Below, one piece after another: positions 2,727-32,000 of a DNA stretch of 32,000 nt. Origin of the DNA: Clostridium facile (GTDB lineage: Bacteria > Bacillota > Clostridia > Oscillospirales > Ruminococcaceae); assembly GCF_014297275.1 (NCBI RefSeq), contig NZ_JACOQK010000001.1, forward strand, positions 1,033,603 to 1,065,602. The letters are read 5' to 3'. A program made the position numbers and the translations under genes. The notes under the pieces are model-generated. The model saw only the letters and a program-made list of their open reading frames with translations. It was not told where the DNA came from and ran no database searches. Every line of letters starts with the position of its first letter. Position 1 is the first letter of the stretch.

Positions 2727-2793
2727 AACATTCTATATCTGGTTAAAAAACCAGACTTTTCTTATATTAAGAGAAAAAGAAGTTTATTATTTA

Positions 2794-7460: not shown

Positions 7461-7540
7461 TTCTGACCTGTTTAGGTAACATTTTCTTCCATTTGTTTTT
7501 TAGATGGGATTTTTGTTATAGGTATTATAGTATATTTCTT

Positions 7541-8275: not shown

Positions 8276-8355
8276 CCATAGTGTTGCAGTATTTGGGGAA
8301 AATATGCAAAAAACAGGACAACTTCTAAAGGATGTCCTGTTTTTACACGAAAATA

Positions 8356-8679: not shown

Positions 8680-8685
8680 GATGGA

Positions 8686-17669: not shown

Positions 17670-17838
17670 CGCAAAATATGGCAATAATGAGAAACTACAA
17701 CCTAGATATTGCGGCAATGTTCTGATAACATCAAAATTACATCGCTTAATTAGGATGTATTTTTGCCATATTCCGCATTTTTTGGTGCGAATACATGGGG
17801 TTTTTATGAGAGCTTATGGTTCGCACCAACCCACAAGC
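17670..17838 (-). promoter_or_regulatory. CRISPR leader between cas2 and the array
   Basis: 169-bp noncoding AT-rich region on the cas2 side of the array, containing two pairs of 10-bp inverted repeats. Confidence 0.8.
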
Positions 17839-18129
17839 TTAAATTAAGAGCTCCCCTTCCAGTTCCAGGCTATCTTTCACCCCGTAATGCTCCACTTTTT
17901 TCTGGTACTGTTCTCCTAAATAATAGAAGCGGATGCTGTCCTTTTTCTCGTCAATATGACGGAGGAGCTTTTCTTTTACTTCACGGCTTTTGGCTGCGTC
18001 CATGATACATTCAAATACAGAGTTCTGCACCCGCTGGCCATAATTTTCACATTCTTTTGCCACCTTACGCAGGCGCTTTTTACCCGCTTCTGTTTCGGTG
18101 TTCACATCATAGGTGATTAAAACCAACAT
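17839..18129 (-). CDS. cas2: CRISPR-associated endoribonuclease Cas2
   Basis: 96 aa MLVLITYDVNTETEAGKKRLRKVAKECENYGQRVQNSVFECIMDAAKSREVKEKLLRHIDEKKDSIRFYYLG. Confidence 0.98.
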   Translation of the reverse strand: MLVLITYDVNTETEAGKKRLRKVAKECENYGQRVQNSVFECIMDAAKSREVKEKLLRHIDEKKDSIRFYYLGEQYQKKVEHYGVKDSLELEGELLI

Positions 18130-19170: not shown

Positions 19171-19841
19171 GGCTCCTCCTCCCCGGTTTGCCTCCTGATA
19201 TAATCATGGACAGAAGGGCGTTTTAACAATTTTGGCAGGCAAATTTCCTTTAAGGAACAGGCGTTGCAGGCTTTTGTTCGTTTGACCATTGGCGTATGTC
19301 GCCGTTGAAACAAATCGTGCATCTGGGCGCATACATTCTCCAGTTTTTGACGAAACTCCTGGGTAATCTCCACCTTTTCCCGGTGCCGTGTGGCACCATA
19401 ATACAGATATCCATATGGGATATCGGTACACAGCATCTCTTCCAGGCAAACTGCTTGCGCCACAAGCTGGAGCCTGTCCGCATCGCTGATTTTGGGTTCC
19501 CCTTTTTTGTACTCCACCGGAACAACCCGGTAAAATCCTTCTTTTTGGAACAGGGAGATCCCTTCCTGCTGGGTGCAGCGGTGGAACTCCACTACATCGC
19601 AAATCCCGCTGATTCCTAATTTTGCGGAAAACACCCGCATCTCCCGGGAAATGAGCAGTTGTCCCCTGCTCTCCAAAGTTGGTCCCTCATGGGCTCTCTG
19701 GTGCAGAATGTTCCCCTCTATGGTTCGCAGGTTATCCGCCCACTGCTCTTCGATTTCAATCAACGCCCACTGCCGCTTGCAAAACACAAAGTGCTGTATC
19801 CCAGAGAGCATCAAGAAATCTTCCTCTTTATATTCCGTCAT
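19167..19841 (-). CDS. cas4: CRISPR-associated nuclease Cas4
   Basis: 224 aa: SGIQHFVFCKRQWALIEIEEQW...VVPVEYKKGEPK...C-terminal cysteines KACNACSLKEIC. Confidence 0.97.
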   Translation of the reverse strand: MTEYKEEDFLMLSGIQHFVFCKRQWALIEIEEQWADNLRTIEGNILHQRAHEGPTLESRGQLLISREMRVFSAKLGISGICDVVEFHRCTQQEGISLFQKEGFYRVVPVEYKKGEPKISDADRLQLVAQAVCLEEMLCTDIPYGYLYYGATRHREKVEITQEFRQKLENVCAQMHDLFQRRHTPMVKRTKACNACSLKEICLPKLLKRPSVHDYIRRQTGEEEP

Positions 19842-20691
19842 ATTCTTCTACTGTTAACCCTTCCAGCGGGGTGAGGGTAATCTGGTAGTCCTCTATGCTT
19901 TTTGGGGTAAGAACCCCTTCTTTTTTGGCAACGCAAAGGCTATCGTGAACCTTTTTGGTGGAATACTGGCCAATTTTGCAGTTGTGTTCCCACCAGTAGA
20001 GCTTATGAATCTCCATACTGCCTTCCGGACGTGCGGAGGAACTATCGTTGACAAAAAGGGTGCGGATAGCTTCTTTGATTTTTTCCGCGTCCTCCTGGGT
20101 AAATCCGGTTTTTTCTGCAAGCTGGACGTTGATGCTCCCTTTTAAGAGGTATACACCAAAATCAACCCGGTGCTTATCCCCCATGGTGTCTGATGCTTTC
20201 CCTCCTTTGGTATCCTCACTGTTGACGCTTTTGGTGATTTTGATAGTGGTGATATTGATTGGATCCACGCTAAATGCTGGATGGAGGGAAACCGGCCCCC
20301 TTATTCCGAGGGAAAGTTCTTCCCCCTTAAAAGCGAATACTTGTCCAAAGCTGCGTACATCCATCCACTCTTGGCAAGCGGCTTGATAGGCTACTTGCGC
20401 ATTGGCTTTTTTCCCTTTTTTCAGTTCTGTGCCAAAGGCGGGGTTTTTATCCGCCCGCTCTTTCAGGCTGTCATAACCATCCACATTTTTGTCATCGGAC
20501 TGGACAAAGATGGATTCCCCCATATCCATCAGGCGGTTTCTGATTTTCCGTTTGATGCAGACATCCGAAATCTCCCCAAACCCTTCATCAGTGATTCTTG
20601 GCATATTTCCGTTGAGGGGATCGCCGTTGCAGTTTGCGTTATTTACTGTAATAATTGCCTCAAAATCAATTTTATTTTGTAATACACCCAT
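19828..20691 (-). CDS. cas7: Type I-C Cascade subunit Cas7 (Csd2)
   Basis: 287 aa: IDFEAIITVNNANCNGDPLNGNMPRITDEGFGEISDVCIKRKIRNRLMDMG... Confidence 0.97.
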   Translation of the reverse strand: MGVLQNKIDFEAIITVNNANCNGDPLNGNMPRITDEGFGEISDVCIKRKIRNRLMDMGESIFVQSDDKNVDGYDSLKERADKNPAFGTELKKGKKANAQVAYQAACQEWMDVRSFGQVFAFKGEELSLGIRGPVSLHPAFSVDPINITTIKITKSVNSEDTKGGKASDTMGDKHRVDFGVYLLKGSINVQLAEKTGFTQEDAEKIKEAIRTLFVNDSSSARPEGSMEIHKLYWWEHNCKIGQYSTKKVHDSLCVAKKEGVLTPKSIEDYQITLTPLEGLTVEEYDGI

Positions 20692-20692
20692 T

Positions 20693-22651
20693 TTATTCTT
20701 CCTCCATCTTCTGTGATTTTTTTATTTGCCGTTCTTTGATAATTTGTATCCTTTGGCTGCAAAAACCAGATAAAAATGCCGCCCCCAAATTTCGTTTCTT
20801 TTTCAGTTCTTTCGTATCAATTCTACTGACCATTTCGTCTAATAAATCGCATAAATCGCAGAGTTTTATCCCCTTGGATTGCATAATGTAAACATTCACC
20901 TTATTGTAAAGTACTGTTAACGTGTCGTAAGGGCTCTGGCAAAACCGCGTAAGAAGCCTTCTCGCATTGGTAGGGCGAACTTCTTTATAAGATTCGTTGT
21001 CATCCGGCTTATTTTTTCCCCACAGCACCTGATTTTCAATAGCATCAGCAAGTGCCACAAATCTTCCGCAATTGTATTCAATATCATCAGTTTCTTTTAC
21101 ACAATTAAAAACACCATTTTCTCCCATAACAAATTCCTCCATTCTATAAATCAACGGATTGTCCTTATCGTAATCATATAAATAACGGTTATATAAGGCG
21201 CATGCCGCAAAAGCAACTTGTTCCCATAAGGACCCATAGCCATAGTTTTGTGGGAATTTCGCCTTGTTGACAGCAGCTTTTACAATATCCCGTGGAATTT
21301 TCGCCCCATCACAGATACAGGGCAGAATCCGCTGCACAGTATCTGCTAACAGCTTATTACTTCCCACTTCCAGATAGTTGCCCCTGCTCACCCCAAACGC
21401 CGCTTTTGCCAGATTCACTGGGGACGGCGCACCAAAATGGTATTCTTGTTTTTTTATCTCGTTGTAATAACGGATATTCCAGGCGCAGGTTTTGTGCCAT
21501 CGCTCTATGTTGTCAATCAGTTCGTTTCCTTGCAGTCCATTGTACTCTCGGTTGAAAACCACCGCCATCCTTCCGGTAGTAGCAGCATCCAACCCCAACA
21601 GCACCAGCTGGCTGTCCTTCCTGATTTCAGCGTGATAACCTGTAATCGCCATTTTAAACTGTTGGGCAAACTCCTGTTCAGTATTAATTTCCACACTCTG
21701 CTCCTCAAAGCAGAACTGGAATGTATCCGCCATGGGGTCGGGGAGTTCTTCCCCATCCACTCCCCACAGAACGAATACACGGTCACCAATTCTGGCAACT
21801 TGCTTCTGGTTCTGAATCAGCCATTTTAAGGCGTTATGGGCTTTTTGGGACGCCTCATAGGATATGGTATACGCTTGTTCCGCTGTTTCAAACCGTCCAC
21901 GGAAAGTAAAATTGGTGGTATCATTGGCAGAAATCAATTTTGCCTTATCACCGGAATTTCTGATTTTAGACGGATGGATGGTGCAGGCCCTTACATGATT
22001 TCCTGTGACATAACAGAGTTTTTTGCTGCCCTCCTGGCTCAAGTAGTAGTTTGTATATTGGTCTTGCAGTTTTCCATCCTGCCACAACGCGGGGACAGAA
22101 TCAATCCCAATCACCGAAAACCGTACAAAGGCATCGGATTGGTTGCCCACCGGCAGTTTTAAATTAGGCTGGTTTTCCCATTTCTTTGTCAACCTTCCGT
22201 TTTCATCCACCGAAAAAATACCCTGTTCCACCAAATCGTGAATCAATGTTTTCTGGTTCAGATACTGGTAAACCGCTTTGACCTTTGGGTTGCTGTACGA
22301 AGATTCACACCATGCTTGTAATTGTTCCATATACGCCTGATAGGCTTCGGCGTTATCCTCTTTGCAGAACCGGGGATAATCCCCCGCTATGTACTTTAGT
22401 TTATCGAATAAAGGATGGGGGCATGGTTTGGATGTCCGGTTGGCGGAATATTCAGTTACCGGTATCACCGTATCCGCTTGATCTTTTTCCACAGGGGTTG
22501 CAGAGATAAACTGCCCCTCCTTGCCCAGCTTGACATCCACATGCGCCTGTTGGGTGGAGAATCCCACCTTAAGCAGCCCTCTTTGGGTGAAATTAGCGGG
22601 GTCTTTTTCCAGCCTTTCATAGGTACGGTACAACGTCATCATGTAACTCAT
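20693..22651 (-). CDS. cas8c: Type I-C Cascade large subunit Cas8c (Csd1)
   Basis: 652 aa: MSYMMTLYRTYERLEKDPANF...VKAVYQYLNQKTLIHDLVEQGIF...FSVIGIDSVPALWQDGKLQDQYTNYY...LCYVTGNHVRACTIHPSKIRNSGDKAKLISANDTTNFTFRGRF. Confidence 0.97.
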   Translation of the reverse strand: MSYMMTLYRTYERLEKDPANFTQRGLLKVGFSTQQAHVDVKLGKEGQFISATPVEKDQADTVIPVTEYSANRTSKPCPHPLFDKLKYIAGDYPRFCKEDNAEAYQAYMEQLQAWCESSYSNPKVKAVYQYLNQKTLIHDLVEQGIFSVDENGRLTKKWENQPNLKLPVGNQSDAFVRFSVIGIDSVPALWQDGKLQDQYTNYYLSQEGSKKLCYVTGNHVRACTIHPSKIRNSGDKAKLISANDTTNFTFRGRFETAEQAYTISYEASQKAHNALKWLIQNQKQVARIGDRVFVLWGVDGEELPDPMADTFQFCFEEQSVEINTEQEFAQQFKMAITGYHAEIRKDSQLVLLGLDAATTGRMAVVFNREYNGLQGNELIDNIERWHKTCAWNIRYYNEIKKQEYHFGAPSPVNLAKAAFGVSRGNYLEVGSNKLLADTVQRILPCICDGAKIPRDIVKAAVNKAKFPQNYGYGSLWEQVAFAACALYNRYLYDYDKDNPLIYRMEEFVMGENGVFNCVKETDDIEYNCGRFVALADAIENQVLWGKNKPDDNESYKEVRPTNARRLLTRFCQSPYDTLTVLYNKVNVYIMQSKGIKLCDLCDLLDEMVSRIDTKELKKKRNLGAAFLSGFCSQRIQIIKERQIKKSQKMEEE

Positions 22652-23376
22652 TGGGCGCCACCCCCTTCCTGGTAACCCTCCAGAAGCCCAGGCTCCTGCA
22701 AACCGGAAAAGTTGGAAGAATCAAACCGTTTCGGTTTCATCTCCCTCACTGGAATCCGTTGGACACAATCCTCCTGTTTACAGTAGCGAATCACGCCCCG
22801 CTCCATTTTAGGATACCAGAACAACGCCTCCAATTGGTTGGTACCGTTCTGGTCAGGGTAAACAAACGAGTGGAACATCAGCCCAAAGTCCATCTGCTCC
22901 AAATCGCTGTAACAGCTCTGTTCCTCCCCTGTAACTGGTTCCACGTATGCCTGGCATTCCCGCGCCCCTAAAAAGACATCCCGCCTGCCTCCTTTTTCGA
23001 TGCAGCGTTTCGCAACCCAGTAGTGTTTATGCTCGTTCCAGTCCTGTTTTAAATCGGGACGATATAGGTTGAACTCAAAATGCGCCTTGACAATGTAGGA
23101 CACATTTGATAAGTACGTGTAATACGCCAAATCGTTGCCGCCGTAGTATTTGATGGGGCGAATGCCCTTCCGCTCGGTACGGATGGGGTTTAAAACCGTT
23201 GCTTCATCGATTATCCATAAAATAGACGGCTTCCAGTACACCGATGACACAATCCCTTTTAACGCCTCAGCAGTGGGAATCATCAAGGTGGATTTTTCCC
23301 CACCAATTTTGGTCATGGGGTCGGTGAATAAGGCGAATCTACCAGAAACCTTAAAAGTGACCTGATTTGGTTTCAT
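22648..23376 (-). CDS. cas5: Type I-C Cas5c (Csd5), predicted crRNA-processing subunit
   Basis: 242 aa: MKPNQVTFKVSGRFALFTDPMTKIGGEKSTLMIPTAEALKGIVSSVYWKPSILWIIDEATVLNPIRTERKG...; RBS AAAGGAGG. Confidence 0.96.
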   Translation of the reverse strand: MKPNQVTFKVSGRFALFTDPMTKIGGEKSTLMIPTAEALKGIVSSVYWKPSILWIIDEATVLNPIRTERKGIRPIKYYGGNDLAYYTYLSNVSYIVKAHFEFNLYRPDLKQDWNEHKHYWVAKRCIEKGGRRDVFLGARECQAYVEPVTGEEQSCYSDLEQMDFGLMFHSFVYPDQNGTNQLEALFWYPKMERGVIRYCKQEDCVQRIPVREMKPKRFDSSNFSGLQEPGLLEGYQEGGGAQ

Positions 23377-23393
23377 TGCTGTTCCTCCTTTCT

Positions 23394-23429
23394 AACTTTT
23401 CTTATACTATTTTTCACTTATTTTGTAAA
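23394..23429 (-). promoter_or_regulatory. Predicted sigma-A-type promoter of cas5-cas8c-cas7-cas4-cas1-cas2
   Basis: Minus strand TTTACA (-35, plus 23424-23429), 17-nt spacer, TATAAG (-10, plus 23401-23406); expected start site ~23394, followed by AAAGGAGG and the cas5 ATG. Confidence 0.85.
23400..23417 (+). promoter_or_regulatory. Protospacer-like site in the cas5 operon promoter matching the crRNA-like RNA
   Basis: TCTTATACTATTTTTCAC vs TCTTATACTATCTTTAAC at 23514-23531: 16/18 identities, first 11 contiguous, preceded by AACTTT (a TTC trinucleotide occupies 23399-23401). Confidence 0.8.
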
Positions 23430-23474
23430 GGGAAATTTTTCATAAAAAAACAGCTTTCTTCTTGTACATTTTTA

Positions 23475-23483
23475 TGGTATACT
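23475..23483 (+). promoter_or_regulatory. Extended -10 promoter of the crRNA-like RNA
   Basis: TGGTATACT (TGn + TATACT); -35 is weak (TTTCTT at 23455-23460 with 17-nt spacing). Expected start falls at about G23490, the first base of the repeat-like sequence. Confidence 0.7.
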
Positions 23484-23489
23484 AAAAGC

Positions 23490-23594
23490 GTCGCAATTTG
23501 CGTGGATTGAAAATCTTATACTATCTTTAACGAAAGAACTGCTTTGTAACAGGTGAGGACGCTATCCTTGTCTGTTGCAAAGCTTTTCTTTTTT
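23490..23594 (+). ncRNA. Predicted crRNA-like regulatory RNA (CreR/CreA-like): degenerate repeat + pseudo-spacer + intrinsic terminator, opposite to the cas genes
   Basis: 23490-23514 GTCGCAATTTGCGTGGATTGAAAAT keeps both repeat ends (GTCGC... and ...GCGTGGATTGAAA) but has a 4-bp hairpin (CGCA-ATT-TGCG) instead of 8 bp (CGCTGCCC-ACAC-GGGCAGCG); then ~27-nt spacer-like segment; then terminator. Confidence 0.8.
23541..23594 (+). terminator. Strong intrinsic terminator of the crRNA-like RNA
   Basis: Arms GCTTTGTAACAG (23541-23552) / CTGTTGCAAAGC (23572-23583), continuing inward through three wobble pairs and AGGA/TCCT to loop CGCTA, followed by TTTTCTTTTTT just before the cas3 stop codon. Confidence 0.85.
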
Positions 23595-23597
23595 CTC

Positions 23598-25946
23598 TTA
23601 AAACAGCGCCAGATCATCTTTCAGGGTTACCCCCAGGCAAGCGTCATAATGGAGGGACCCCATCAGGTATGCCCCTGTCACCTGATTTTGGGTGATATCA
23701 TTCTGTAACGTCTGGAACTGGTATCGGTACAGATTGACCGAATATTTCCGCAATTGGGAAAGTAATCTTTTCTTTTCCTCCATAGGTGAAAACTCGTTAA
23801 GCTGCTCCAGTTTTTCTATGAGTTGTAACCCCTCCCCATAAGGGACAATCACTGGGATGGTATCGTTTCCAATCACCTCAAAGGGTTGCGCTGCCGATTG
23901 GAATTTTACTGTAGTAAATAATGGGCTTTTTCTGATTTTATTTTGTAGTAATTCATAAATGGATACAGATCCATTCAAAGGGTAGGAAAACTGTTTGGAA
24001 ATCCGCTCATCCTGATAATAAAGCTGAAAAAACTCCTTAATAGAGGATGGAGATAAACCGTCTGAGGTCATCCGCAGCACGCTATCCGCATGGTCGATTC
24101 CAATTGGATATTCCGGCATGTTATTGTAAGAGCCTTCCTGCAATTTTACCGCATAGCAATAACCCAGTTCCTGTTCCCCATTACGGTTGACCCTACCCGC
24201 TGTCTGGGCAACCGAATCCAGACGGGTTAAGCTGCGGACCGCTGCTTCAAAGCTGATATCCACCCCAGCTTCAATGAGCGAAGTGCTGACGCAGATTAAG
24301 TCCTCCCCATCTTTTAGCGCCTGCTTTAGTTCCTTCAACACCTTGCCTCTATGTGCCTGACACAAGCGGGTACTCAAATAAAACAGATTTATCCCTTCCA
24401 GTTCGGGAGATTGGCACAGCATTTCCCAAACAGCAGCTGCGGTATCCACCTTATTCACCACTGCCAATAGGCTTTTTACCTCGCGTTTTCTCTCCAAGAG
24501 GAACTGCTGAAATTGTTCCAAGTCATATTTCTTTGGCTTATAGACCACCTGTACTCGCTTGAGCTGCTCAAAATTGCGGCTGACATTCTTCACAATTTCA
24601 GCATCTTCCGATTCTTTTATCATGGGATGCCCCAGAAGATTCGTATAAGGCTGGGTAGCAGTACAAAGTACTAGGGTAGAATTCCCTACCTGGCGCAGAA
24701 AATTGGCTGCGCTTGTGAACAAATCCATACATTTGGCAGGAAGGGTTTGGATTTCATCAAAAATAATGGTGGCATTCATCAGATGGTGGAGACGGCGCAT
24801 GTCCTGAGTACCTCGATGGTAGAAGGTGTTTAAAAACTGCACCATAGTCGTAAAAATGATATCGCTCTCCCAACGTTCGGTAAGCAGTTTATAATCCTCC
24901 TGCTGGTTATCCTCCAACAGGTTGGAATGGTGCTCCAGCAAATCGCACTGGTAGCCCAGAGCTTTCCGAATTTGTTCAGCGTTTTGCTCGATGATTGAAG
25001 TATATGGAATGACATAGACAATCCGCTGTTTTTGATTTAGCCGGTTATGGTTCAGGGCAAACCGCATACTGGAAAGGGTTTTCCCTCCCCCTGTTGGAAC
25101 AGTAAGACGGTAGATACCCGTCCCTCTATTGGACGCAAGAAAACATTCATCCGAGATTGCTTGCCGAATCCGGTTTACCTGCTCTGTTTTGGGTTCCGCA
25201 GATGATTTCTGGCTGAGTTGGGACAGATAAACCTCAAACCTACCTTGGTATTCCTCCCATGCTGGGAATTGCTGTTCCCGTTCTATTACAGGGGAGATCC
25301 CCCTGTTTTCCTCAAAGCACATGCTGTCCATCCGGTCGGCGTCAATCAGTATGCTGTAGATGGTTTTGATCAGCAGGTGGTAACAGAACACCCCATCTTT
25401 CATTTTTGTAACCCCTTCGATAATAGGAACCAGTTCTTCTAACGCTTGGTGGAACAGTTTGGTAAGATCTTCTTGGATTTCCTGGGAAAACCGTTGGTAT
25501 GCCTGTTCTATCCTGTGTTGGTCTAGTTTTTCGAACCGCTCCAAAAGAGGGGATTGATTACAGACATCCACACAATCTTTTAATCCGCCATGGTGGTAGC
25601 AGCACGCCATGGCGATGATTTCCACGATGGCGCCACGCCGGCTTTTTCCCGGATAAAAGGTTTGGAAAAAATATTTTGCCCCATATACCCCATGGTCAAA
25701 ATCGGATTTCCGTTTCTGGGAAAGGTACTGCTTTGGGTTTTGCACTGCCCGCTGCCGTTCCCCTTCGATAAAATCCTGGAACTGCTGGTCGTATTTGCCC
25801 ATATCATGGAGCAAACCCGCCAGGCGCATGGTTTGAGAAAGGTTTAATTTTGCCCCGAATGATTCTGACAGACTGGCAACCCCTAAAATATGCTCCCGTA
25901 ACGGCTGCTGTTTTCCATCCTGTAGCCGGAACCTTGCCTGATACAT
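23598..25946 (-). CDS. cas3: CRISPR-associated helicase-nuclease Cas3 (N-terminal HD + DExD/H helicase)
   Basis: 782 aa: LAGLLHDMGKYDQQFQDF (HD), YRLTVPTGGGKTLSSMRFAL (Walker A), IIFDEIQTL (Walker B), TSLIEAGVDISFEAAVR, QTAGRVNRNGE. Confidence 0.98.
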   Translation of the reverse strand: MYQARFRLQDGKQQPLREHILGVASLSESFGAKLNLSQTMRLAGLLHDMGKYDQQFQDFIEGERQRAVQNPKQYLSQKRKSDFDHGVYGAKYFFQTFYPGKSRRGAIVEIIAMACCYHHGGLKDCVDVCNQSPLLERFEKLDQHRIEQAYQRFSQEIQEDLTKLFHQALEELVPIIEGVTKMKDGVFCYHLLIKTIYSILIDADRMDSMCFEENRGISPVIEREQQFPAWEEYQGRFEVYLSQLSQKSSAEPKTEQVNRIRQAISDECFLASNRGTGIYRLTVPTGGGKTLSSMRFALNHNRLNQKQRIVYVIPYTSIIEQNAEQIRKALGYQCDLLEHHSNLLEDNQQEDYKLLTERWESDIIFTTMVQFLNTFYHRGTQDMRRLHHLMNATIIFDEIQTLPAKCMDLFTSAANFLRQVGNSTLVLCTATQPYTNLLGHPMIKESEDAEIVKNVSRNFEQLKRVQVVYKPKKYDLEQFQQFLLERKREVKSLLAVVNKVDTAAAVWEMLCQSPELEGINLFYLSTRLCQAHRGKVLKELKQALKDGEDLICVSTSLIEAGVDISFEAAVRSLTRLDSVAQTAGRVNRNGEQELGYCYAVKLQEGSYNNMPEYPIGIDHADSVLRMTSDGLSPSSIKEFFQLYYQDERISKQFSYPLNGSVSIYELLQNKIRKSPLFTTVKFQSAAQPFEVIGNDTIPVIVPYGEGLQLIEKLEQLNEFSPMEEKKRLLSQLRKYSVNLYRYQFQTLQNDITQNQVTGAYLMGSLHYDACLGVTLKDDLALF

Positions 25947-26319
25947 CTTAAAATTCTCCTTTACCGAATTGACTTATTGTAAATGTTAGATATTGTTTCC
26001 ATTATAACACAATTTTATGAATTTTTCTGTCTAAACAAGGGGATTATCGTCTATTTTTGGAATTTTTTATTTTATTCCCGATCATAAGGGAAATAGATCC
26101 AATGTCCCTACCAAAAAAGTAATCAAAATAAAAAATATGGACCAACCTATGAATTCAGTCTTTTTATGTTGACTGTTTGTATACAATCCTTTAGAAAATT
26201 CCATTTGACAAACTGTAAAATTGATATTTTGACCCGTTTTTAAATTATTTTTTAGTTTTTTAATCAATTTGTTATAATTATATCGTTTAATATTTTTTGT
26301 ATTTGGAGGGAAAATCGCT

Positions 26320-26718
26320 ATGCGAAAAGCAATACGAGAATTTTTGATTTATGACGCCTTTGTTGCGGTTACTATGATTGCAAGATATTTTGTAGTGAAT
26401 GATATTGAGTGGGGATATTTTTGGCTTTGCGTGGTCTATTTTCCAACTGTTTTTTTGTTTCAACCAGTTTTTGGGTTACTACTGGGATACCGGGCAATAA
26501 AAAAATATAATATCCCCTGCTTGCGGTTTTTAGCGTTAAGCCTGCTGTTCTTTCTGATCAACGGTTTTACATTTTCTATTCTATCCATAGGAAGTGCGTA
26601 CACATATGGATTTATAGATACTTTTTGGAACACCGGTTTGATATATGCGTGCATATTCATTGCGTTTTACTGGTTGTCCTATTTTATTACAAAATTTTAT
26701 TTGAAGTTTTATTTTTAA
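26320..26718 (+). CDS. Hypothetical polytopic membrane protein, 132 aa
   Basis: Good RBS (TTGGAGGGAAAA) and four hydrophobic segments; followed by a terminator. Confidence 0.7.
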   Translation: MRKAIREFLIYDAFVAVTMIARYFVVNDIEWGYFWLCVVYFPTVFLFQPVFGLLLGYRAIKKYNIPCLRFLALSLLFFLINGFTFSILSIGSAYTYGFIDTFWNTGLIYACIFIAFYWLSYFITKFYLKFYF

Positions 26719-27086: not shown

Positions 27087-29999
27087 TTATTGAAATGGCT
27101 GTTCTATCTGCTGTTTTAAAAAGAGCAGGTTACGCAAACAAGAAAGGGTTTGTGGATCGGATTCCCCCAGCGTATCCCTGAGGATGAAAAAGGAGCGTTC
27201 CAGATAATCCAATGCTTTACAAAGCTTCCTTTGCATAAAGTAGGCATGGCCAATTTCATTGTAATCCACAGCGATTTCCGGATGCAGTTCTCCAAGGATA
27301 TGTTGATGAATCCGTAAGGCTTTTGGGTAAAAGCCAATCGCTTTATCATACAAACATTGGATTTCATATAAATCCCCAATTAAGATATATTCCTCTGCTA
27401 CCTCCATAGATTCTTCCCCAAAAGCCTTCTGGCTGGCACGTAAAGAGTTTTGGTAAGCTTCCAGCGCATTTGAATATTCCTTTTGGAGGCTGTAAAGATG
27501 ACCAATATTATGGAAAAGGGTTGTGATTGCCTGAATATTTTCTTTTGTCTGCCCTTGTTCGATTTGCAGGCATTTTTGATAACACTCCAACGCTTTGGCA
27601 TAATTTTTCTGGCAACTATATAAATAGGCGATTGCGTTATACACCATGGACACGTTAGTATCCTGTTCTCCATACAGGTTCTGGGTTACTTTTAGCGCTT
27701 TCTGATAATATTCCAACGCCTTTGGATATCGTTTCCAATCCTGGTACATTTGAGCAATATTGTTATAGTAGGTGACAATATTGGGATGGTTTTCCCCCAA
27801 CAATTCCAGCTCTATTTCCAGTGCTGTTTGAAAATACCTCACCGCATTTGGATAATCTCCCATACCATAATAGGCTCCACCAATATTGTTATAGATCGTT
27901 GCGGTGGATTTATGAAATCCTTCTGTAAGATTTTGGTCGATTTCCAACGCCTTTTGGTAATACTCCAATGCTGTAGTATATTCTCCTTTTCGATGGTGTA
28001 CCATTCCAATATTCAGATAATTGACAATAATATTGGGATGCTGTTCCCCAAAAACCCTGCGGTTGATTGCTAGCCCTTTTTGATAATATTCTAATGCTAG
28101 TCCTAATTTTTGTTGCCTGCTATAGACACCTCCAATGTTATGGTAACAGGCTGCGGTTTCTGGATGTTCTTCCCCCAGTATCTTCTGGTTGATTTGCAAC
28201 GCTTTCGTATAATATTCTAAAGCGGTTTCATTATCCCCAAAGATAACATAAATCGAACCCATATTATTGTATACCGATGCTGCTGTATGCCCCTTGGAAT
28301 ATTTTTCGTCCAAAGCAATCGCCTTCTGATAATATTCCAATGCTGCGGCATAATCCCCTTTTTCAAAATAAAGCAATCCAATATTTCCATAAATGGAATA
28401 CAGCCGCAGCTCTTCTTTTATTTTTTTCTGATGAATATTCAGTGCTTTATTGTAATATTCCAGTGCAACATCATACTGGCACAGGTATTGGTATACCATA
28501 CCAATATTTTCATACTCTGTAGCAACCTGCAAGCACTCTTCTCCTAAGGTGTTCCGGACAATTTGCAAGGATTTTTGGTAATACGCCAAAGCGTCCATAT
28601 ATTTGCCACAATCGCAGTATACTAGCCCCATACTATTGTAAACAGATGCAGTATACACATCCTCTTTTCCAACTGTTTGGAGAAAAATGTTAAGCGCTTT
28701 CTGATCATATTCCAACGCTTTTGGAAAGTTGGCTCCTTGGCGAAGCAATTCAGCGTACTTGAGGAAAAAATTAGCATATGCCACGTCATCTCCTTCAATC
28801 CGTTTCGCTACAGCGTCTCCAAACTGGGAAATCTCCTGTCTTTGCTGGCAGGTATCGCAGTAGGAACCTAGATAATCGAAAATTGCTTCCAGATAACACC
28901 AGCAGTCCTTGATGTTGGGGGTTAGGTCATTCTCTAGAATATCTGCCATCACAGGATGGAGGGAATAGTGGGTGTTTTCGTTCCGTACCCATCCACGGGC
29001 TACCAACTGTTTCAGTTGGGGTAGTTTGGTTGATTCCATCCCACACCATTTTAGGAACTGCTTCCCGTCCACACCAGTGTAAGGAACCAACAATAAATTC
29101 CTTAACAGATAAATTTGATCCTCCGACAGTTTCTCCCTGCTAATATCAAAAATAGCGCGTAAATGTTGGTACATACTTTTTTGGGATTGCTTTCCGTCCT
29201 TATTCAAGGGGATCACGGTATCCTGATGATCTTTGAGTTTTTCCCTTAGTTCCTCCAGCATTTCCGCCAGGGGGATTTCTTCCTCCCGTATCTGTTTTGC
29301 CAGAAGCTCCACCGTCATGGTGTGTCGATCCACCAGCTGAATCAATTCATCCAGTTGGGCAAGTTCATCCTCTGTAAAATCCGTGCTTCCGTAAGAATGA
29401 AAAAACACCTCCCTAGCCTGTTCCGATTCCAATGGCATCACCTTAACCTGCTGTTTCCCATACTGACTCCAATCATTCCGGGTAGTAAACAACAGATACC
29501 ATCCCATTGATTCCAGATCTTCCATCTCATCGGATTCTGTTTCATTGAAATTATCCACGATGAGTAAAACCCTTTGCTGGGCACACAATTGTTTTATCAC
29601 GGCCTTTTTTTGCAAATAATACTGTTCTAATTCTTCCGCTTTCGCTTTCGCTGGAATAGAAAAACCTCCCAAAGTTATCCCTAGAACAACATCCCGCAAA
29701 CTGGAAGCGTAATTTGCCCATACTACACTACCGTTCCACCGGGTGGCATATTGTTTGGCGAGCTCACTTTTCCCGATGCCGCCTATCCCCCAAAGAAATA
29801 CCGTCCTGCCTTCCTGGAATTTTTGTTCCAGTGTTTCCAACTCCTGTTCCCTGCCAACAAACCCTTCTTTCAGCGGGATGGCTGAGCAGAGGATACTGTA
29901 TTGTTTTTCCCCGTTGGGATGAAGATGGATATTGTATTCCGAAAGGTAGGTTGGCCCCTGGTTTTTCATCTCCTCAATCCGGATTCCGTCCTGTCCCAT
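27087..29999 (-). CDS. STAND-class (NB-ARC-like) NTPase with long C-terminal TPR array
   Basis: 970 aa: FVGREQELETLEQKFQEGRTVFLWGIGGIGKSELAKQYA (P-loop), RVLLIVDNFNE (Walker B), LLFTTRNDW (sensor); then many ~42-aa TPRs of the form YNNIGxxYxxxGxYxxALEYYQKALEIxxxxxGExHP. RBS GGAGG before ATG 29999. Confidence 0.88.
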   Translation of the reverse strand: MGQDGIRIEEMKNQGPTYLSEYNIHLHPNGEKQYSILCSAIPLKEGFVGREQELETLEQKFQEGRTVFLWGIGGIGKSELAKQYATRWNGSVVWANYASSLRDVVLGITLGGFSIPAKAKAEELEQYYLQKKAVIKQLCAQQRVLLIVDNFNETESDEMEDLESMGWYLLFTTRNDWSQYGKQQVKVMPLESEQAREVFFHSYGSTDFTEDELAQLDELIQLVDRHTMTVELLAKQIREEEIPLAEMLEELREKLKDHQDTVIPLNKDGKQSQKSMYQHLRAIFDISREKLSEDQIYLLRNLLLVPYTGVDGKQFLKWCGMESTKLPQLKQLVARGWVRNENTHYSLHPVMADILENDLTPNIKDCWCYLEAIFDYLGSYCDTCQQRQEISQFGDAVAKRIEGDDVAYANFFLKYAELLRQGANFPKALEYDQKALNIFLQTVGKEDVYTASVYNSMGLVYCDCGKYMDALAYYQKSLQIVRNTLGEECLQVATEYENIGMVYQYLCQYDVALEYYNKALNIHQKKIKEELRLYSIYGNIGLLYFEKGDYAAALEYYQKAIALDEKYSKGHTAASVYNNMGSIYVIFGDNETALEYYTKALQINQKILGEEHPETAACYHNIGGVYSRQQKLGLALEYYQKGLAINRRVFGEQHPNIIVNYLNIGMVHHRKGEYTTALEYYQKALEIDQNLTEGFHKSTATIYNNIGGAYYGMGDYPNAVRYFQTALEIELELLGENHPNIVTYYNNIAQMYQDWKRYPKALEYYQKALKVTQNLYGEQDTNVSMVYNAIAYLYSCQKNYAKALECYQKCLQIEQGQTKENIQAITTLFHNIGHLYSLQKEYSNALEAYQNSLRASQKAFGEESMEVAEEYILIGDLYEIQCLYDKAIGFYPKALRIHQHILGELHPEIAVDYNEIGHAYFMQRKLCKALDYLERSFFILRDTLGESDPQTLSCLRNLLFLKQQIEQPFQ

Positions 30000-30008
30000 A
30001 TAAACCTC

Positions 30009-30341
30009 CTATGATAGGCAAGAAGAAACAATTCCAATTAAATTTTTGATATTCTCTACTAATGTAGGAATTTTATCTGTAATAGCAACGGCGCACCCTA
30101 AACCTTCCACACATTTTTTGAGGATTTCCCATCTTGGCTTGGGCTTCATCAGTTCCGTATGAACAGTATCCACTGTTTCCACAATTGTTTTGGCCTCTTT
30201 CTCCGGAACGGCGGAAAGTTCCTTTTTAATGTTCTGAATAATCTTTTCCAATTCCTCGATTTTCATACTGTCCAAATGAACATAGATATCCCCTTCCGCT
30301 AAATAGGTCGGACCTTTATTTTCCATTTTGTTAATATACAT
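30009..30341 (-). CDS. Small protein in putative operon with the STAND NTPase
   Basis: MYINKMENKGPTYLAEGDIYVHLDSMKIEELEKIIQNIKKELSAVPEKEAKTIVETVDTVHTELMKPKPRWEILKKCVEGLGCAVAITDKIPTLVENIKNLIGIVSSCLS; ATG at 30341 preceded by GGGGGAG; stop is 9 bp before the NTPase start. ORF track start (30404) appears too far upstream. Confidence 0.75.
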   Translation of the reverse strand: MYINKMENKGPTYLAEGDIYVHLDSMKIEELEKIIQNIKKELSAVPEKEAKTIVETVDTVHTELMKPKPRWEILKKCVEGLGCAVAITDKIPTLVENIKNLIGIVSSCLS

Positions 30342-30540
30342 TCTAGCTCCCCCTTGTCCTGATTTTATCCATATTATACAACATGAATGGTTATAATACA
30401 ACAACTTTGTCTTATTTTTCCAACTTCTATCCCGAATAGTTGCTATAAATTTCTAATTGCATTTTGCTCTATGGTTTTTTGATAGATATTTTGACCTGTT
30501 CTAAATAAGGATACTACTTTTGGAAACTGCCGGATATAAT

Positions 30541-30573
30541 AAAAATAGCATCCCAAAAAAGGATGCTATTTTT
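30541..30573. terminator. Intrinsic terminator downstream of the LRR/SLH gene
   Basis: 13-bp perfect arms AAAAATAGCATCC / GGATGCTATTTTT, 7-nt loop. Confidence 0.85.
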
Positions 30574-30604
30574 ATGCTATATTGTCAGAGACTGTTTTTA
30601 AAAA

Positions 30605-32000
30605 TTATAGGCTATAGTATTCCATAAATCTCATAATCATCGTTGCTCCGGCCGCTCTTCCTGTTTGCCCTTGTGGGTCAATGACTGGCTGGTTGTTTTG
30701 CCCTTTGATGATACCGCAGCCCAGTGCCCATTCCATTGCTTCTTTGGAGAATGTACTTACCTGATTTCCGTCTTCATAATTGCCAATCGATGTTTTTTGG
30801 CTGGTGTCCAATCCTTTATACTGGGCGTATCGGTATAACATGGTTACAAACTGTTCTCTGGTAATCAATACCCCTACCCCAAATTCATTTGTATCCTGGT
30901 AGCCTGTTGTTATCCCAACTTGTTTTGCCCACAATACCGCATTCGTAAAATAAGCATTATCTGGTACATCTGAAAATATAGGCTCATAACTTATAGCTGG
31001 TTCCCCTTCCAAACGGTACAAGATGGTTACCAGATGGTCACGGGCCATACTTTCATTTGGTCCAAAAGTGGTCTCGTTAAACCCTGTCATTATGCCACGG
31101 TCATAGGTAAACCTTACAGCATCGTAACACCAATCATTTACAGAAACATCATTATATGGCAGGTCAATAGAAATAAAATCAATGCCTCTTTCTATTGCGA
31201 GTTTTTCTGCTGGACTACCAGATAATCCATAAATAGTTGATAAATTACTACATTCTTTAAATTCATTTTCTCCAATTATCGTATTTCCATTAAATTTAAC
31301 AGTCTTTAAATTATTACAACCATAAAATACACCATTAATAGATTGAATACTATTAGGTATAGTAAAAAACGTTAATCCATAGCATTCACGAAAAGCATTT
31401 GGTTCAATAGTAAGAATACTTTCTGATAATGACACAGATTTTAACCTATAACATTTTTCAAATGCAGAATTTCCAATTGTTTCTAAACCTTGTGGAAATT
31501 CAATGGACGATAAAGATATACAGTTTTTAAACGCACAATCACCAATCTTTTTTAAATTACATGGTAAATTAATATATTCCAAACTGGAACATCCAAAAAA
31601 GGCATATTCCCCCAAAATTTTAACAGTATCAGGAATTGAAATTGAAGTTATATTTTTGCATTCTCCAAAAGCATAACTAGAAATTTTAGTAATTCCATTA
31701 GGAATATTAATATCGCCAGATGCATTACCTGTTCCAAATAAAACTGTATTCAAAATAATATATGGATTTTCAATTCCCCATGGTGTATTTGTAAACGCTT
31801 GCAATTCAATTTTTTCAATAGTAGATGGAATATCTACATATACTAAATTAGAACAATTAACAAAGGCACCACTACCTATCGATTTAACATTACTTGGTAT
31901 ATCTATAGATTTTAAATTATTACAATAAGAAAAAGAACCAGATTGTATGTTAGTTAACTTTTTGGGCAGTGATATTGATTCAAAAGAACATCCGCTAAAA
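30605..32000 (-). CDS. BspA-type leucine-rich-repeat protein with C-terminal SLH domains, partial at right window edge
   Basis: LRR pattern ITKISSYAFGECKNITSISIPDTVKILGEYAFFGCSSLEYINLP..., SLH-like segments FSDVPDNAYFTNAVLWAKQVGITTGY and REQFVTMLYRYA. The frame stays open upstream of the ORF-track start: ...IPSNVKSIGSGAFVNCSNLVYVDIPSTIEKIELQAFTNTPW. Confidence 0.9.
   Translation of the reverse strand, partial: FSGCSFESISLPKKLTNIQSGSFSYCNNLKSIDIPSNVKSIGSGAFVNCSNLVYVDIPSTIEKIELQAFTNTPWGIENPYIILNTVLFGTGNASGDINIPNGITKISSYAFGECKNITSISIPDTVKILGEYAFFGCSSLEYINLPCNLKKIGDCAFKNCISLSSIEFPQGLETIGNSAFEKCYRLKSVSLSESILTIEPNAFRECYGLTFFTIPNSIQSINGVFYGCNNLKTVKFNGNTIIGENEFKECSNLSTIYGLSGSPAEKLAIERGIDFISIDLPYNDVSVNDWCYDAVRFTYDRGIMTGFNETTFGPNESMARDHLVTILYRLEGEPAISYEPIFSDVPDNAYFTNAVLWAKQVGITTGYQDTNEFGVGVLITREQFVTMLYRYAQYKGLDTSQKTSIGNYEDGNQVSTFSKEAMEWALGCGIIKGQNNQPVIDPQGQTGRAAGATMIMRFMEYYSL

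Follow-up and report, generated by a model that had tools for sequence, protein, structure and literature searches.

A STAND NTPase and a small four-helix protein with a common N-terminal motif beside a type I-C CRISPR-Cas operon: a candidate two-gene NLR-like module

Described systems that pair a sensor and an effector

BASS1-10 are bacterial NLR/effector pairs with common amyloid motifs (Dyrka et al. 2020, bioRxiv 10.1101/2020.01.06.895854); known amyloid signalling motifs favour Q/N/G/V/I and are poor in K/P/L (Dyrka et al. 2020). In the 32,000-nucleotide stretch of Clostridium facile DNA analysed here (the window), two genes resemble the Bell/NLR pairs of BASS1-10 in being adjacent and collinear with an intergenic distance of <=10 bp, and in sharing a ~20-25-aa motif that stands at the extreme N-terminus of an NB-ARC/NACHT protein with TPR or WD repeats and is repeated in a small helical partner. 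The likeness extends to the relatives: all-in-one forms exist in which NLR and effector are fused, the motif is also joined to TIR and other immune domains, and the canonical motif of the family is Q/N/G/V/I-rich and P-poor (the window's own motif is instead Y/H/P/L-rich). Unlike in BASS, the partner domain is not Bell but a four-helix bundle without an N-terminal hydrophobic helix, the motif lies ahead of the helical domain rather than after it, and the family is found in unicellular gut Clostridia. In Firmicutes, both NLR-like architectures and Bell domains were reported to be rare or absent (Dyrka et al. 2020). The BASS screen was blind to the present family because only the C-termini of Bell proteins were screened.

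The E. coli pair Bab/Agp, with motif BASS11, is an experimentally shown abortive-infection system (Ibarlosa et al. 2024, bioRxiv 10.1101/2024.11.07.622273). As described there, the ~110-aa Bab, like the small window protein, consists of a small helical domain and a motif (~23 aa in Bab), and its neighbour in a defence island is a ~1000-aa TPR-containing sensor with the same motif at its N-terminus; experiments support a model in which the motif is converted by the sensor and the helical domain does the killing. Unlike the present bundle, Babybell is described as having five helices, of which four form a cup around a hydrophobic N-terminal one, and its motif is C-terminal; this comparison of Bab/BASS11 with the window proteins is one of description, not of sequence. 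Fungal NWD2/HET-S and other FASS (HRAM, sigma, PP), as summarised by Ibarlosa et al. (2024), likewise combine adjacent genes for an NLR and a separate helical-bundle protein, and ligand-induced oligomerisation of the NLR templates the short motif of the helical-bundle executioner. Unlike the window pair, these are eukaryotic, their HeLo/Hell effectors have a C-terminal prion-forming domain, and there is no homology.

Homotypic coupling has also been proposed for the effector-associated domains (EADs) found in NTP-dependent conflict systems (Kaur, Burroughs, Iyer, Aravind 2020, eLife, PMC7159879); here, unlike there, only a ~20-residue beta-motif is common, and the four-helix bundle is absent from the STAND partner. 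PDC-M14 is a PADLOC phage-defence candidate from guilt-by-embedding (Payne et al. 2024, bioRxiv 10.1101/2024.01.29.577857). In the PDC-M14B profiles a C-terminal stretch of ~100 positions is motif plus four-helix bundle: residues 25-107 of the small window protein match positions 181-259 of 261 (E=1.9e-11), and its relative P0085 is a full-length PDC-M14B (6.8e-86). Unlike the window protein, PDC-M14B has an extra N-terminal domain of ~150 aa. The PDC-M14A model has no match in the window STAND protein or in any related STAND partner.

Avs and bNACHT, which are antiviral STAND or bacterial NLR-related proteins, are single polypeptides with a fused effector. They have in common with the present locus a STAND NTPase, a C-terminal repeat sensor and a defence-island context, and can be compared with the nearest STAND homologues of the window protein, which have TIR, kinase or SIR2-like N-terminal effectors. 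In the window protein, unlike Avs and bNACHT, only a peptide of 18 residues occupies the effector position, and a separate gene encodes the candidate effector. Relative to described amyloid signalling, we read as new the putative four-helix effector domain, the opposite order of motif and domain, and the orphan Tyr/His/Pro-rich motif.

The locus and its two proteins

The small partner gene (30009..30341, minus strand; called from ORF and RBS) encodes 110 aa, with the shared motif N-terminal and the four-helix bundle C-terminal. Collinear with it and downstream, the STAND NTPase-TPR gene (27087..29999, minus strand) encodes a 970-aa NLR-like sensor without a fused effector domain by Pfam. Each gene has its own RBS: GGGGGAG precedes the ATG of the small gene, whose product begins MYINKMENKGPTYLAEGDIYVHLDSM, and AGGAGG that of the STAND gene, whose product begins MGQDGIRIEEMKNQGPTYLSEYNIHLHPNGE. 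Public gene calls reproduce both products. The 9-bp stop-to-start gap given in the sequence-only reading is correct, and so is its distance of ~4 kb to cas3 (23598..25946) as measured from the small gene; cas3 lies 1.1 kb past the STAND stop. The pair is flanked by a surface LRR/SLH gene upstream and by the adjoining type I-C CRISPR-Cas operon. Its chromosomal position is the same in every strain seen, and no obvious mobile element carries it. A hairpin with a 15-bp stem and T/A runs (30539..30575), between the LRR/SLH gene and the pair, is a probable terminator and would as such make the pair a separate transcription unit. A promoter-like site ahead of the small gene, TGGAAA-18-TATTAT (30393..30422, minus strand; 9/12 matches in a consensus scan), is weak evidence, and in that scan the region has no more such sites than shuffled sequence would give.

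The small protein is invariant across six strain contexts, and the identical 110-aa product occurs in 59 blocks of public assemblies. Between strains, the STAND protein has 1-10 aa changes per 4-30 nt changes, mostly in the TPR array; with so few amino acid relative to nucleotide changes, its gene is under purifying selection.

The NB-ARC-like NTPase module of the STAND protein (28800..29867, minus strand; about residues 45-400) is recognised by homologues and by weak Pfam matches (AAA_16, NACHT, nSTAND1 and nSTAND6, over residues 45-160). Its Walker A is GIGGIGKS at residues 71-78 (29766-29789), followed by a Walker B-like LLIVDNF that can be read directly from the sequence. The TPR sensor array (27105..28793, minus strand; about residues 403-965) consists of about 13 TPRs, and the matches over about residues 400-970 are very strong (TPR_12, 4e-106 in 9 stretches; TPR_10, 2e-78). 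MalT-like TPR and AfsR match weakly, and among solved structures that of the plant NLR Roq1 is closest in sequence (E=0.0025). No DNA-binding or other output domain was found by Pfam. Most of 78 STAND homologues (E down to 1e-53) have PF00931 NB-ARC, and they often carry an N-terminal kinase, TIR or SIR2-like domain where the window protein has its motif, which is the pattern expected if the motif replaces the effector.

Residues 25-109 of the small protein (30015..30269, minus strand) are predicted by AlphaFold2, with a family alignment, to form a four-helix bundle (H25-44, H47-64, H71-87, H92-109; pLDDT mostly above 90, pTM 0.72), and the same bundle is predicted for the canonical member P0115. 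The protein belongs to no Pfam, NCBIfam or PHROG family, and the bundle has no significant match in PDB by sequence or by fold (Foldseek). HeLo, MLKL and Bell-type folds are absent from the PDB Foldseek matches; the look-alikes are generic four-helix bundles, including the immunity proteins Tsi6 and EntA-im, at non-significant E-values. Family-invariant positions are loop prolines and core residues, none of them catalytic-looking. H1-H2 is the more acidic half, strongly in canonical members; H3-H4 is moderately hydrophobic and basic. It had been suggested that a hydrophobic C-terminus could act at membranes; as stated this is unsupported, for the segment is H3-H4 of a confidently predicted soluble bundle, and the 19-residue Kyte-Doolittle maximum is 1.2 (1.4-1.5 in relatives) against a usual transmembrane threshold of about 1.6, so that no stretch of the bundle is of transmembrane-grade hydrophobicity on this measure.

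The shared motif and its family

Both N-termini contain [KQ]GPTYL[AS]Ex[ND]I[YH][VL]H. Motif A comprises residues 6-24 of the small protein (30270..30326, minus strand; MENKGPTYLAEGDIYVHLD), in register with the family motif GGQVNIAxDNATINATQNN. Motif B comprises residues 11-28 of the STAND protein (29916..29969, minus strand; MKNQGPTYLSEYNIHLHP), upstream of the NTPase lead-in FVGREQELE and Walker A. That these adjoining proteins have a motif in common, the observation from which the sequence-only reading starts, is confirmed: their best local alignment is the motif segment (25 columns, 11 identities, BLOSUM62 67), a score reached by 0/1000 shuffles of the small protein against the whole STAND protein (34.2 +/- 5.1), and when only the N-termini were shuffled (20.6 +/- 4.2) the observed score was reached in 0/5000. 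Over the motif only 33/57 nucleotides agree, so the likeness has been maintained in protein and does not come from recent copying of DNA. Six-frame translation of the window gives no further instance of the extended motif (G.TYL, TYL[AS]E) and no third motif-bearing ORF; the tetrapeptide GPTY (26139-26150, plus strand) and the sub-pattern I[YH][VL]H[LP] (9665-9679) each recur once, as chance matches.

In composition the window motif is P 10%, L 13%, Y 13%, H 10% and N+Q 6%, the canonical family motif N 19%, Q 10%, G 11% and P 0%; the former, an orphan variant, is rich in Tyr, His and Pro. Motif A is drawn as coil in the AlphaFold2 monomer, with pLDDT below 50, and the motif of P0115 as a three-strand meander, also at low pLDDT. 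The window motif is without the N/Q/G-rich, P/L-poor makeup typical of known amyloid signalling motifs, and it is N-terminal to its helical domain, where in all described BASS/FASS effectors the motif is C-terminal; both observations count against an amyloid-type module of the kind proposed below.

The small protein has ~70 homologues (an exhaustive phmmer search gave 34 and a profile search 39), almost all in Lachnospiraceae and other Clostridia, and among these relatives there is no Pfam domain or name for it. The bundle, C-terminal and of ~80 aa, is common to all of them, and in nearly all a ~24-aa N/Q/G-rich motif directly precedes it; KGPTYLAEGDIYVHL of the window protein aligns at the position of that motif. 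In 13 of the loci L001-L017 the gene 8-13 bp downstream begins with the same kind of motif, and 11 of those 13 genes encode Walker-A proteins of 574-732 aa, STAND NTPases with TPR or pentapeptide repeats; the partner is NB-ARC+TPR in L003 and L017, and NB-ARC/NACHT with pentapeptide repeats in L008. By motif HMM, a second motif-bearing gene stands next to the bundle gene in 16/16 loci (those not interrupted by a contig end), and a third is present in L002, L011 and L017. Of the exact GPTYL variant there is no second example in 1.84 billion representative proteins or in JGI metagenome contigs.

In the aligned pairs, cognate motifs resemble each other more than they resemble non-partner motifs. 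(What this means operationally is that the summed cognate A/B score is 779, as compared with 546 +/- 46 for permuted partners, and is reached in 1/50,000 permutations; the frequency is 7/50,000 without the window pair and 50/50,000 with dereplication as well.) Both partners in L008-L010 have V/L/I instead of the conserved Q. Most extreme is the window pair, motif A scoring 60 with motif B (11/24 identical) and -0.1 with non-cognate STAND motifs. The family-wide position of the motif, the 16/16 loci and this co-variation support the earlier proposal of a homotypic adaptor motif linking an NLR-like STAND protein to its partner.

The defence context that had been proposed also gains support from the relatives. 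Their N-terminal fusions include AbiTii (1.5e-42), Peptidase_S8, DUF4062 and, weakly, TIR; L001 has the motif linked to TIR/SEFIR (bSEFIR, 1.6e-62); neighbours include a DRT UG5-nitrilase reverse transcriptase in L004 and a type I restriction enzyme in L002; and the PADLOC PDC-M14B profile covers motif and bundle. No family member was found on viral contigs, which is neutral for a defence module.

A proposed mechanism and its alternatives

On balance, the two genes probably form an NLR-like module for defence or regulated cell death. The 970-aa protein would be sensor and switch, an NB-ARC-type STAND NTPase whose TPR array binds a ligand and whose 18-residue, putatively strand-turn-strand peptide stands where its homologues have a kinase, TIR or SIR2 domain. 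The 110-aa protein, presumably co-transcribed, would present the same peptide, then the compact four-helix bundle. A trigger, probably a phage protein, would bind the TPR array; the NTPase would oligomerise, as known STAND/NLR proteins do; its N-terminal peptides would gather in a beta-sheet, probably a cross-beta, amyloid-like nucleus; and this nucleus would recruit or template the identical peptide of the small protein. Polymerisation beside helix 1 would release or cluster the bundle, which can be thought of as the executioner, and, more speculatively, its hydrophobic, basic H3-H4 hairpin might be exposed to the membrane. Homotypic coupling of the two proteins through the motif is considered likely, and a defence or cell-death role of the pair fairly probable. 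Amyloid-type templating by the motif, rather than a finite beta-interaction, is put forward tentatively, at somewhat less than an even chance, and it is doubtful that the bundle is a membrane-directed killer. The extra enzymatic or Abi-type N-terminal domain in many members implies that the bundle could be an adaptor part, not an effector.

The motif might, alternatively, be a homotypic docking peptide and the small protein a regulator and not a killer, with the output elsewhere: it could cap the STAND N-terminus and keep the sensor off, or serve as an adaptor recruiting an unlinked host factor. A bundle with neither catalytic-looking invariant residues nor a transmembrane-grade segment fits this, as do its immunity-protein look-alikes (at their non-significant E-values) and the separate Abi, TIR or peptidase domain ahead of motif and bundle in many relatives. 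These fused domains, and the further motif-bearing TIR/SEFIR or membrane proteins in the same loci of some relatives, mean that non-bundle effectors exist in the family. However, the bundle protein is the sole motif-bearing partner seen beside an effector-less STAND protein in at least 10 related loci and in the window, with its lack of a third motif-bearing ORF; moreover, the bundle gene of L017 is split in two ORFs beside an intact STAND gene, and losing an effector is more tolerable than losing an inhibitor. A regulator is judged unlikely. It is more improbable still that the pair is a housekeeping or regulatory STAND module (for example, a TPR-ATPase with a small cofactor controlling a cellular process), uninvolved in phage defence or cell death and only incidentally close to CRISPR-Cas. 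STAND-TPR proteins are also regulators, and the weak MalT-like TPR and AfsR matches, the fixed chromosomal position free of any obvious mobile element and the failure to find the family on viral contigs are compatible with such a role; against it are the lack of an output domain in the STAND protein, the TIR, kinase or SIR2-like N-termini of NTPase homologues, typical of conflict systems, and the links of the partner family to AbiTii, TIR/SEFIR, DRT, type I restriction and PDC-M14B.

The location of the motif within the first 30 residues of both proteins, where disorder is predicted, would suit a common tag recognised by some third factor (for example a degron, a signal for localisation or export, or a modification site). 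In many relatives, however, the homologous motif lies within the protein, at a distance of 90-390 residues from its N-terminus and always immediately ahead of the bundle (as in P0103, L003 A and the second genes of L001, L011 and L016), and partner-specific co-variation is unexpected of a tag read by one common machinery, which makes this explanation very improbable. The motif is short and its exact variant has no other example, as might be expected of a chance likeness or of a functionless, decaying remnant of local duplication. That reading is effectively refuted by the shuffles (0/1000 and 0/5000), by an arrangement kept in 16/16 related loci and by the co-variation of the motifs; the likeness at the protein level, with 33/57 nucleotides identical, and the purifying selection across strains speak against it too.

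A pair of adjacent genes with a common N-terminal motif

The 110-residue protein A (30341..30009, minus strand) and the 970-residue STAND NTPase-TPR protein B (29999..27087, minus strand) are encoded by adjacent ORFs with good Shine-Dalgarno sequences (GGGGGAG and AGGAGG, respectively); nine bases separate the stop codon of A from the start codon of B on the same strand, and public gene calls give identical products for both. The N-termini of A (MYINKMENKGPTYLAEGDIYVHLDSM) and B (MGQDGIRIEEMKNQGPTYLSEYNIHLHPNGE) share a motif of the type [KQ]GPTYL[AS]Ex[ND]I[YH][VL]H, comprising residues 6-24 of A and, upstream of the NTPase domain, residues 11-28 of B. This segment is also the best local alignment of the two whole proteins (25 columns, 11 identities, BLOSUM62 score 67). 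Shuffled A aligned with full 970-aa B scores 34.2 ± 5.1 and shuffling both N-termini yields 20.6 ± 4.2, with 0 of 1000 and 0 of 5000 shuffles, respectively, attaining 67; the proposal of the sequence-only reading, that the STAND protein and its small neighbour 9 bp away have a short N-terminal motif in common, is borne out. The extended motif was found nowhere else in the window, where chance matches are confined to a bare GPTY (26139-26150) and a single occurrence of the sub-pattern I[YH][VL]H[LP] (9665-9679). Over the motif, the DNA is identical at 33 of 57 positions, so the resemblance has been maintained at the peptide level and does not stem from fresh copying. With DNA identity at just 58%, an origin of the shared motif in recent gene conversion is rejected.

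Downstream of the motif, B carries the Walker A sequence GIGGIGKS (residues 71-78) and, beyond it, a Walker B-like LLIVDNF. Its Pfam matches are weak over residues 45-160 (AAA_16, NACHT, nSTAND) and, for TPRs from residue ~400 to 970, overwhelming (TPR_12, 4e-106); no Pfam domain precedes residue 45. Most of the 78 homologues of B residues 1-405 (all at ≤38% identity, and from Clostridia metagenome assemblies) combine PF00931 NB-ARC with TPRs, and many of them carry a protein kinase, TIR or SIR2-like domain at the N-terminal position where B has only ~40 residues. The closest solved structure by sequence in the PDB is that of the plant NLR Roq1 (NB-ARC). With its NTPase and TPRs, and with no N-terminal domain, B is thus an NLR-like STAND sensor lacking an effector domain of its own. 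One homologue, the NB-ARC-TPR protein P0069, has another N-terminal beta-type segment, NASGVQAVDGIGTVNVNLSSN, ahead of its NTPase.

A has no family in Pfam, NCBIfam or PHROG. AlphaFold2 with the family alignment leaves residues 1-20 disordered (pLDDT below 50) and predicts residues 25-109 confidently as a four-helix bundle (pLDDT mostly above 90, pTM 0.72). The same bundle is predicted for P0115, a relative with the canonical N/Q/G-rich form of the motif that is described below, and there the motif is drawn as a low-confidence three-strand meander beside the bundle. Foldseek of the A model against the PDB returns only generic bundles with non-significant E-values, and no HeLo, MLKL or Bell-like entry; the family profile finds no sequence relative in the PDB. 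Helices 1-2 of A are acidic and helices 3-4 moderately hydrophobic and basic, the most hydrophobic being the third and not the first. A membrane-acting hydrophobic C-terminus had been suggested for A from its sequence; in that form the suggestion finds no support. The 19-residue hydropathy maximum of 1.2 (1.4-1.5 in relatives) is too low for a transmembrane helix, and a C-terminal transmembrane segment of the classical kind is rejected.

The A and B genes share a reading frame, with just TAG and three codons between them (29700-30341, minus strand), and read-through of the stop codon of A would yield a motif-bundle-motif-STAND fusion. The shared frame is probably coincidence, because the frames differ in the related locus L003. 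A strong hairpin (30539-30575) lies between the upstream gene and the pair, and a weak promoter-like site (30422-30393) precedes the A gene.

Motif-bundle proteins and their partners in other Clostridia

Detection of relatives of A required exhaustive searching (the sole match of a word-indexed homology search was a 99%-identical copy). Exhaustive phmmer of 1.84 billion representative proteins gave 34 matches, 33 of them relatives at E-values of 2.8e-8 to 9e-4 over A residues 25-108, and a search with the family profile gave 39, the window sequence scoring 109 bits through its 99%-identical cluster representative P0001. None of these relatives is named or has a Pfam domain, and all share the bundle. 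In nearly all of them the bundle is preceded directly by a ~24-residue N/Q/G-rich segment (consensus NGGQVNIAxDNATINATQNNG), the canonical motif, and the window motif KGPTYLAEGDIYVHL aligns in register with GGQVNIAxDNATINATQ. Some members consist of motif and bundle alone (110-120 aa); others have an extra N-terminal domain, which is AbiTii (1.5e-42), Peptidase_S8, DUF4062 or a weak TIR. No relative of the family was found in viral contigs.

Family members were located at 17 genome loci of Lachnospiraceae or other Clostridia (recovered with seven close members as query and hence biased to the canonical type of motif). At 13 of these, the gene 8-13 bp downstream starts with a motif of the same kind, and 11 of these 13 downstream genes encode a Walker-A protein of 574-732 aa. 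Pfam assigns NB-ARC and TPRs to the downstream partners in L003 and L017, and NB-ARC/NACHT with pentapeptide repeats to that in L008. The pair of canonical motifs in L003, FNISGGQVNISSDNATINATQNNG in the small protein and NLHEGGQVNVALDSGNVNSVQNNV in its STAND partner, serves as an example. With a motif HMM, each of the 16 loci that are not cut by a contig end yields a second motif-bearing gene adjoining the bundle gene, and three additional metagenome pairs show the same pairing. The idea of the earlier reading, that a motif links the STAND protein to its small partner, is supported by this recurrence of paired motifs of the canonical kind (16/16 uncut loci), the partner usually being a STAND protein. 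The second motif-bearing gene of L001 encodes an N-domain-motif-TIR/SEFIR protein (bSEFIR, 1.6e-62). A third motif-bearing gene is detected in L002, L011 and L017, the extra proteins including membrane proteins, and these multi-motif-gene loci suggest that one sensor may serve several outputs. L004 has a gene for a DRT UG5-nitrilase reverse transcriptase in the neighbourhood, and L002 one for a type I restriction enzyme.

Several individual loci depart from the simple two-gene arrangement. The three motif-bearing genes lie at 1980-2384, 2391-3278 and 4041-4889 in L011 and at 6983-7357, 7370-9562 and 9686-10552 in L002; in L001 (387-1982) the motif is situated between the N-terminal domain and the TIR/SEFIR domain, and in some loci it is joined to predicted membrane proteins. 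The downstream motif-bearing partners in L005 (815-1933) and L006 (2418-3854) are 372- or 478-residue proteins that are not STAND proteins and have neither a Walker A sequence nor a Pfam family; the L006 partner has a hydrophobic stretch, FLIIVFSVGIICLVCL, shortly past its motif. In L017 the motif-bundle gene is split into a 63-aa ORF (7004-7195) and a 52-aa ORF (7198-7356), and is probably a pseudogene; the motif-bearing NB-ARC-TPR gene downstream (7367-9091) is intact.

Co-variation of the partner motifs was assessed by placing them in register and comparing the summed BLOSUM62 score of true pairs with that of partners permuted among loci (the L028 pair was registered one residue off, which counts against the result). 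The observed sum is 779 for all 16 pairs, against 546 ± 46 for permuted partners (1 of 50,000 permutations reaching the observed value). Omission of the window pair gives 719 against 583 ± 38 (7 of 50,000), and restriction to one representative per close clade, again without the window, gives 453 against 360 ± 30 (50 of 50,000). Because the genes share one tree and independent drift would not favour cognate likeness, this surplus points to concerted evolution of the two motifs. In L008-L010, a Q that is conserved elsewhere gives way to V, L or I in both partners. Most extreme is the window pair, whose A motif scores 60 against that of B and, on average, -0.1 against the remaining STAND motifs.

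In composition, the canonical motif (N 19%, Q 10%, G 11%, P 0%) agrees with bacterial amyloid signalling sequences (BASS; Dyrka et al. 2020), and the window motifs (P 10%, L 13%, Y 13%, H 10%, N 3%, Q 3%) do not. An HMM of the canonical motif detects neither motif of the window pair, which thus carries a distinct sequence variant. The window pair has in common with the family a homologous bundle, a motif right before it and a partner motif in the next gene. No other protein with a GPTYL-type motif was found among the 1.84 billion representatives, and the sole match to the degenerate DNA pattern GPTYL[AS]E..I[YH][VL]H in JGI metagenome contigs is this very gene, from the species itself; judged by these searches, the variant looks like an orphan. 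The family as a whole apparently represents Clostridial, motif-coupled sensor/effector genes that are so far undescribed: it does not appear in the literature searched on BASS12/13 and on newer amyloid-motif families or in a 2026 STAND survey, an absence that is not in itself proof.

Relation to amyloid-type signalling and to other candidate systems

The two genes form a genuine NLR-like module that is under selection. Its anatomy matches the logic of NLR/effector pairs that are coupled by amyloid signalling motifs, such as fungal NWD2/HET-S and pairs with other fungal (FASS) motifs. Between fungal NLRs and their separately encoded executioners, templated signalling through a short motif is an established mechanism. 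Experimental demonstration in bacteria is so far limited to one E. coli system, Bab/Agp with BASS11, shown to be an abortive-infection system (bioRxiv 10.1101/2024.11.07.622273). Bioinformatic mapping has covered only filamentous Actinobacteria and Cyanobacteria, and there only partners with a Bell domain; for Firmicutes, the BASS study describes both Bell domains and NLR-like architectures as absent or rare (bioRxiv 10.1101/2020.01.06.895854). The window pair resembles BASS pairs in its adjacent collinear genes with a tiny gap (9 bp here, 8-13 bp in 13 related loci), in the NLR-like NB-ARC/NACHT and TPR architecture of B, and in a ~20-25-aa motif at the NLR N-terminus that is repeated in the partner. 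BASS motifs are enriched in Q, N, G, V and I, depleted in K, P and L, and have beta propensity (bioRxiv 10.1101/2020.01.06.895854); the canonical motif bears this published signature (rich in Q/N/G/V/I, poor in P), whereas that of the window abounds in Y, H, P and L and is nearly devoid of N and Q. The effector motif, C-terminal in BASS systems, is N-terminal here and in relatives always stands right before the bundle. Effectors of BASS pairs are Bell or Babybell domains, in which helices cup a conserved hydrophobic helix at the N-terminus, or domains such as TIR and CHAT. The model of A has four helices and, compared by description, appears to lack this defining helix of Bell and Babybell. 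The pair sits in unicellular Firmicutes, while BASS1-10 with Bell domains belong to filamentous bacteria. On account of these differences in motif order, apparent helical domain, hosts and window motif composition, the pair is not filed as a BASS member and is taken to work like one.

The antiviral STANDs of the Avs and bNACHT types are known as single proteins in which an effector domain is fused to the STAND NTPase. B has no fused effector, unlike those of its homologues with a kinase, TIR or SIR2-like domain. In EAD-coupled systems (Kaur et al. 2020, PMC7159879) the same domain is present in the NTPase component and in the adjacent effector protein; A and B share only ~18-24 residues (the alignment ends at B residue 32, and the bundle is absent from B), and since the shared part is a peptide and not a domain, the pair is not an EAD system. 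A residues 25-107 also match the C-terminal end of component B of the PADLOC candidate PDC-M14 (PDC-M14B, 1.9e-11), a match limited to the last ~80 profile positions. Full-length PDC-M14B, of which P0085 is an instance, has ~260-275 aa and an N-terminal domain that is missing in A, and PADLOC finds no match to PDC-M14A in B or in related partners. For both these reasons the pair is not a complete PDC-M14. (PDC systems come from 'guilt-by-embedding' and are candidates for defence that await testing (bioRxiv 10.1101/2024.01.29.577857); a literature search for PDC-M14 by name returned nothing.)

The published amyloid-motif signature of the canonical motif, together with the anatomy of the pair, leads to a proposal in four steps. 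A trigger would bind the TPR array of B and B would oligomerise; oligomerisation may then bring the N-terminal peptides together in a nucleus of beta-sheet or cross-beta type, which would recruit the same peptide of A and so activate the four-helix bundle. The main alternative makes A a cap or adaptor in place of a killer; it draws on the inert look of the bundle and on the occurrence of other effectors in the family, and it has to accommodate that the bundle protein is the sole partner with the motif, in the window as at most STAND loci. A non-defence regulatory role of the pair is much less likely, in view of the defence-type associations of B homologues and of A's family. Also much less likely is a targeting or degron tag that a third party would read in both proteins, since many relatives have the homologous motif at an internal position and the partner motifs co-vary. 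Chance as the origin of the A/B likeness is effectively excluded by the shuffling (0/1000 and 0/5000) and by pairing in 16 of 16 evaluable loci.

Under the proposal of motif-templated activation of A by B, it is conceivable, though rather doubtful, that the window pair constitutes a naturally re-coded, orthogonal channel of an undescribed amyloid-like signalling family of gut Clostridia. Sensor and effector would jointly have exchanged an ancestral N/Q/G-rich cross-beta motif for a Tyr/His/Pro strand-turn-strand motif that would still template, perhaps via aromatic instead of Asn/Gln ladders, and a new four-helix executioner would be activated from its N-terminal side, the reverse of the arrangement in HET-S, Bell and Babybell. 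In that case, motif sequence would set signalling specificity and insulate paralogous NLR systems from cross-talk, and NLR-amyloid signalling would extend to unicellular Firmicutes of the human gut. More generally, the locus, taken with ~70 relatives, indicates that gut Clostridia hold a separate family with a new partner domain and the opposite order of motif and domain, its sensors being TPR or pentapeptide STANDs and membrane proteins and its outputs the bundle, TIR/SEFIR, AbiTii and S8 peptidase. The proposed mechanism is directly testable, and the window pair also supplies a naturally re-coded motif. Confirmation would add one more defence family to the pan-immune system of the human gut, explain part of the untested candidate PDC-M14, and provide a natural orthogonal pair of motifs (N/Q type and Y/H/P type) for tests of amyloid/beta-zipper specificity.

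Strain contexts and CRISPR neighbourhood

The identical A protein is found in 59 blocks of public assemblies. The six strain contexts of the pair that were compared (L018-L023) all have the same order: LRR/SLH surface-protein gene, pair, opposite-strand ORF of 132 aa, type I-C cas genes. A is invariant over the six, and B differs by 1-10 amino-acid changes per 4-30 nucleotide changes, mostly in the TPRs. The window variant, an orphan by the searches above, is maintained.

The CRISPR array (17173-17669, repeat ATTTCAATCCACGCTGCCCGTGTGGGCAGCGAC) adjoins the type I-C cas operon (18139-25946, minus strand; cas1, cas4, cas7, cas8c/csd1, cas5d, cas3), and GTG-start ORFs at 17057-17847 probably cross the array. 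In two strain contexts a 120-aa ORF (~12075-12437 in L020, ~8620-8982 in L021) replaces cas3 (23598-25946 in the window); both keep the A/B pair and all else of the cas operon. The 132-aa ORF (26320-26718, plus strand) has on one side the STAND gene, with which it is convergent, and on the other cas3. Its product is hydrophobic and membrane-protein-like, without a match in Pfam, PADLOC, NCBIfam or PHROGs, and all six strain contexts contain the ORF. Upstream of the pair, the gene for a BspA-type LRR_5 and SLH surface protein (30605-31804, minus strand) varies strongly in length, encoding 681, 1318 and 1708 aa in other assemblies (L018-L021).
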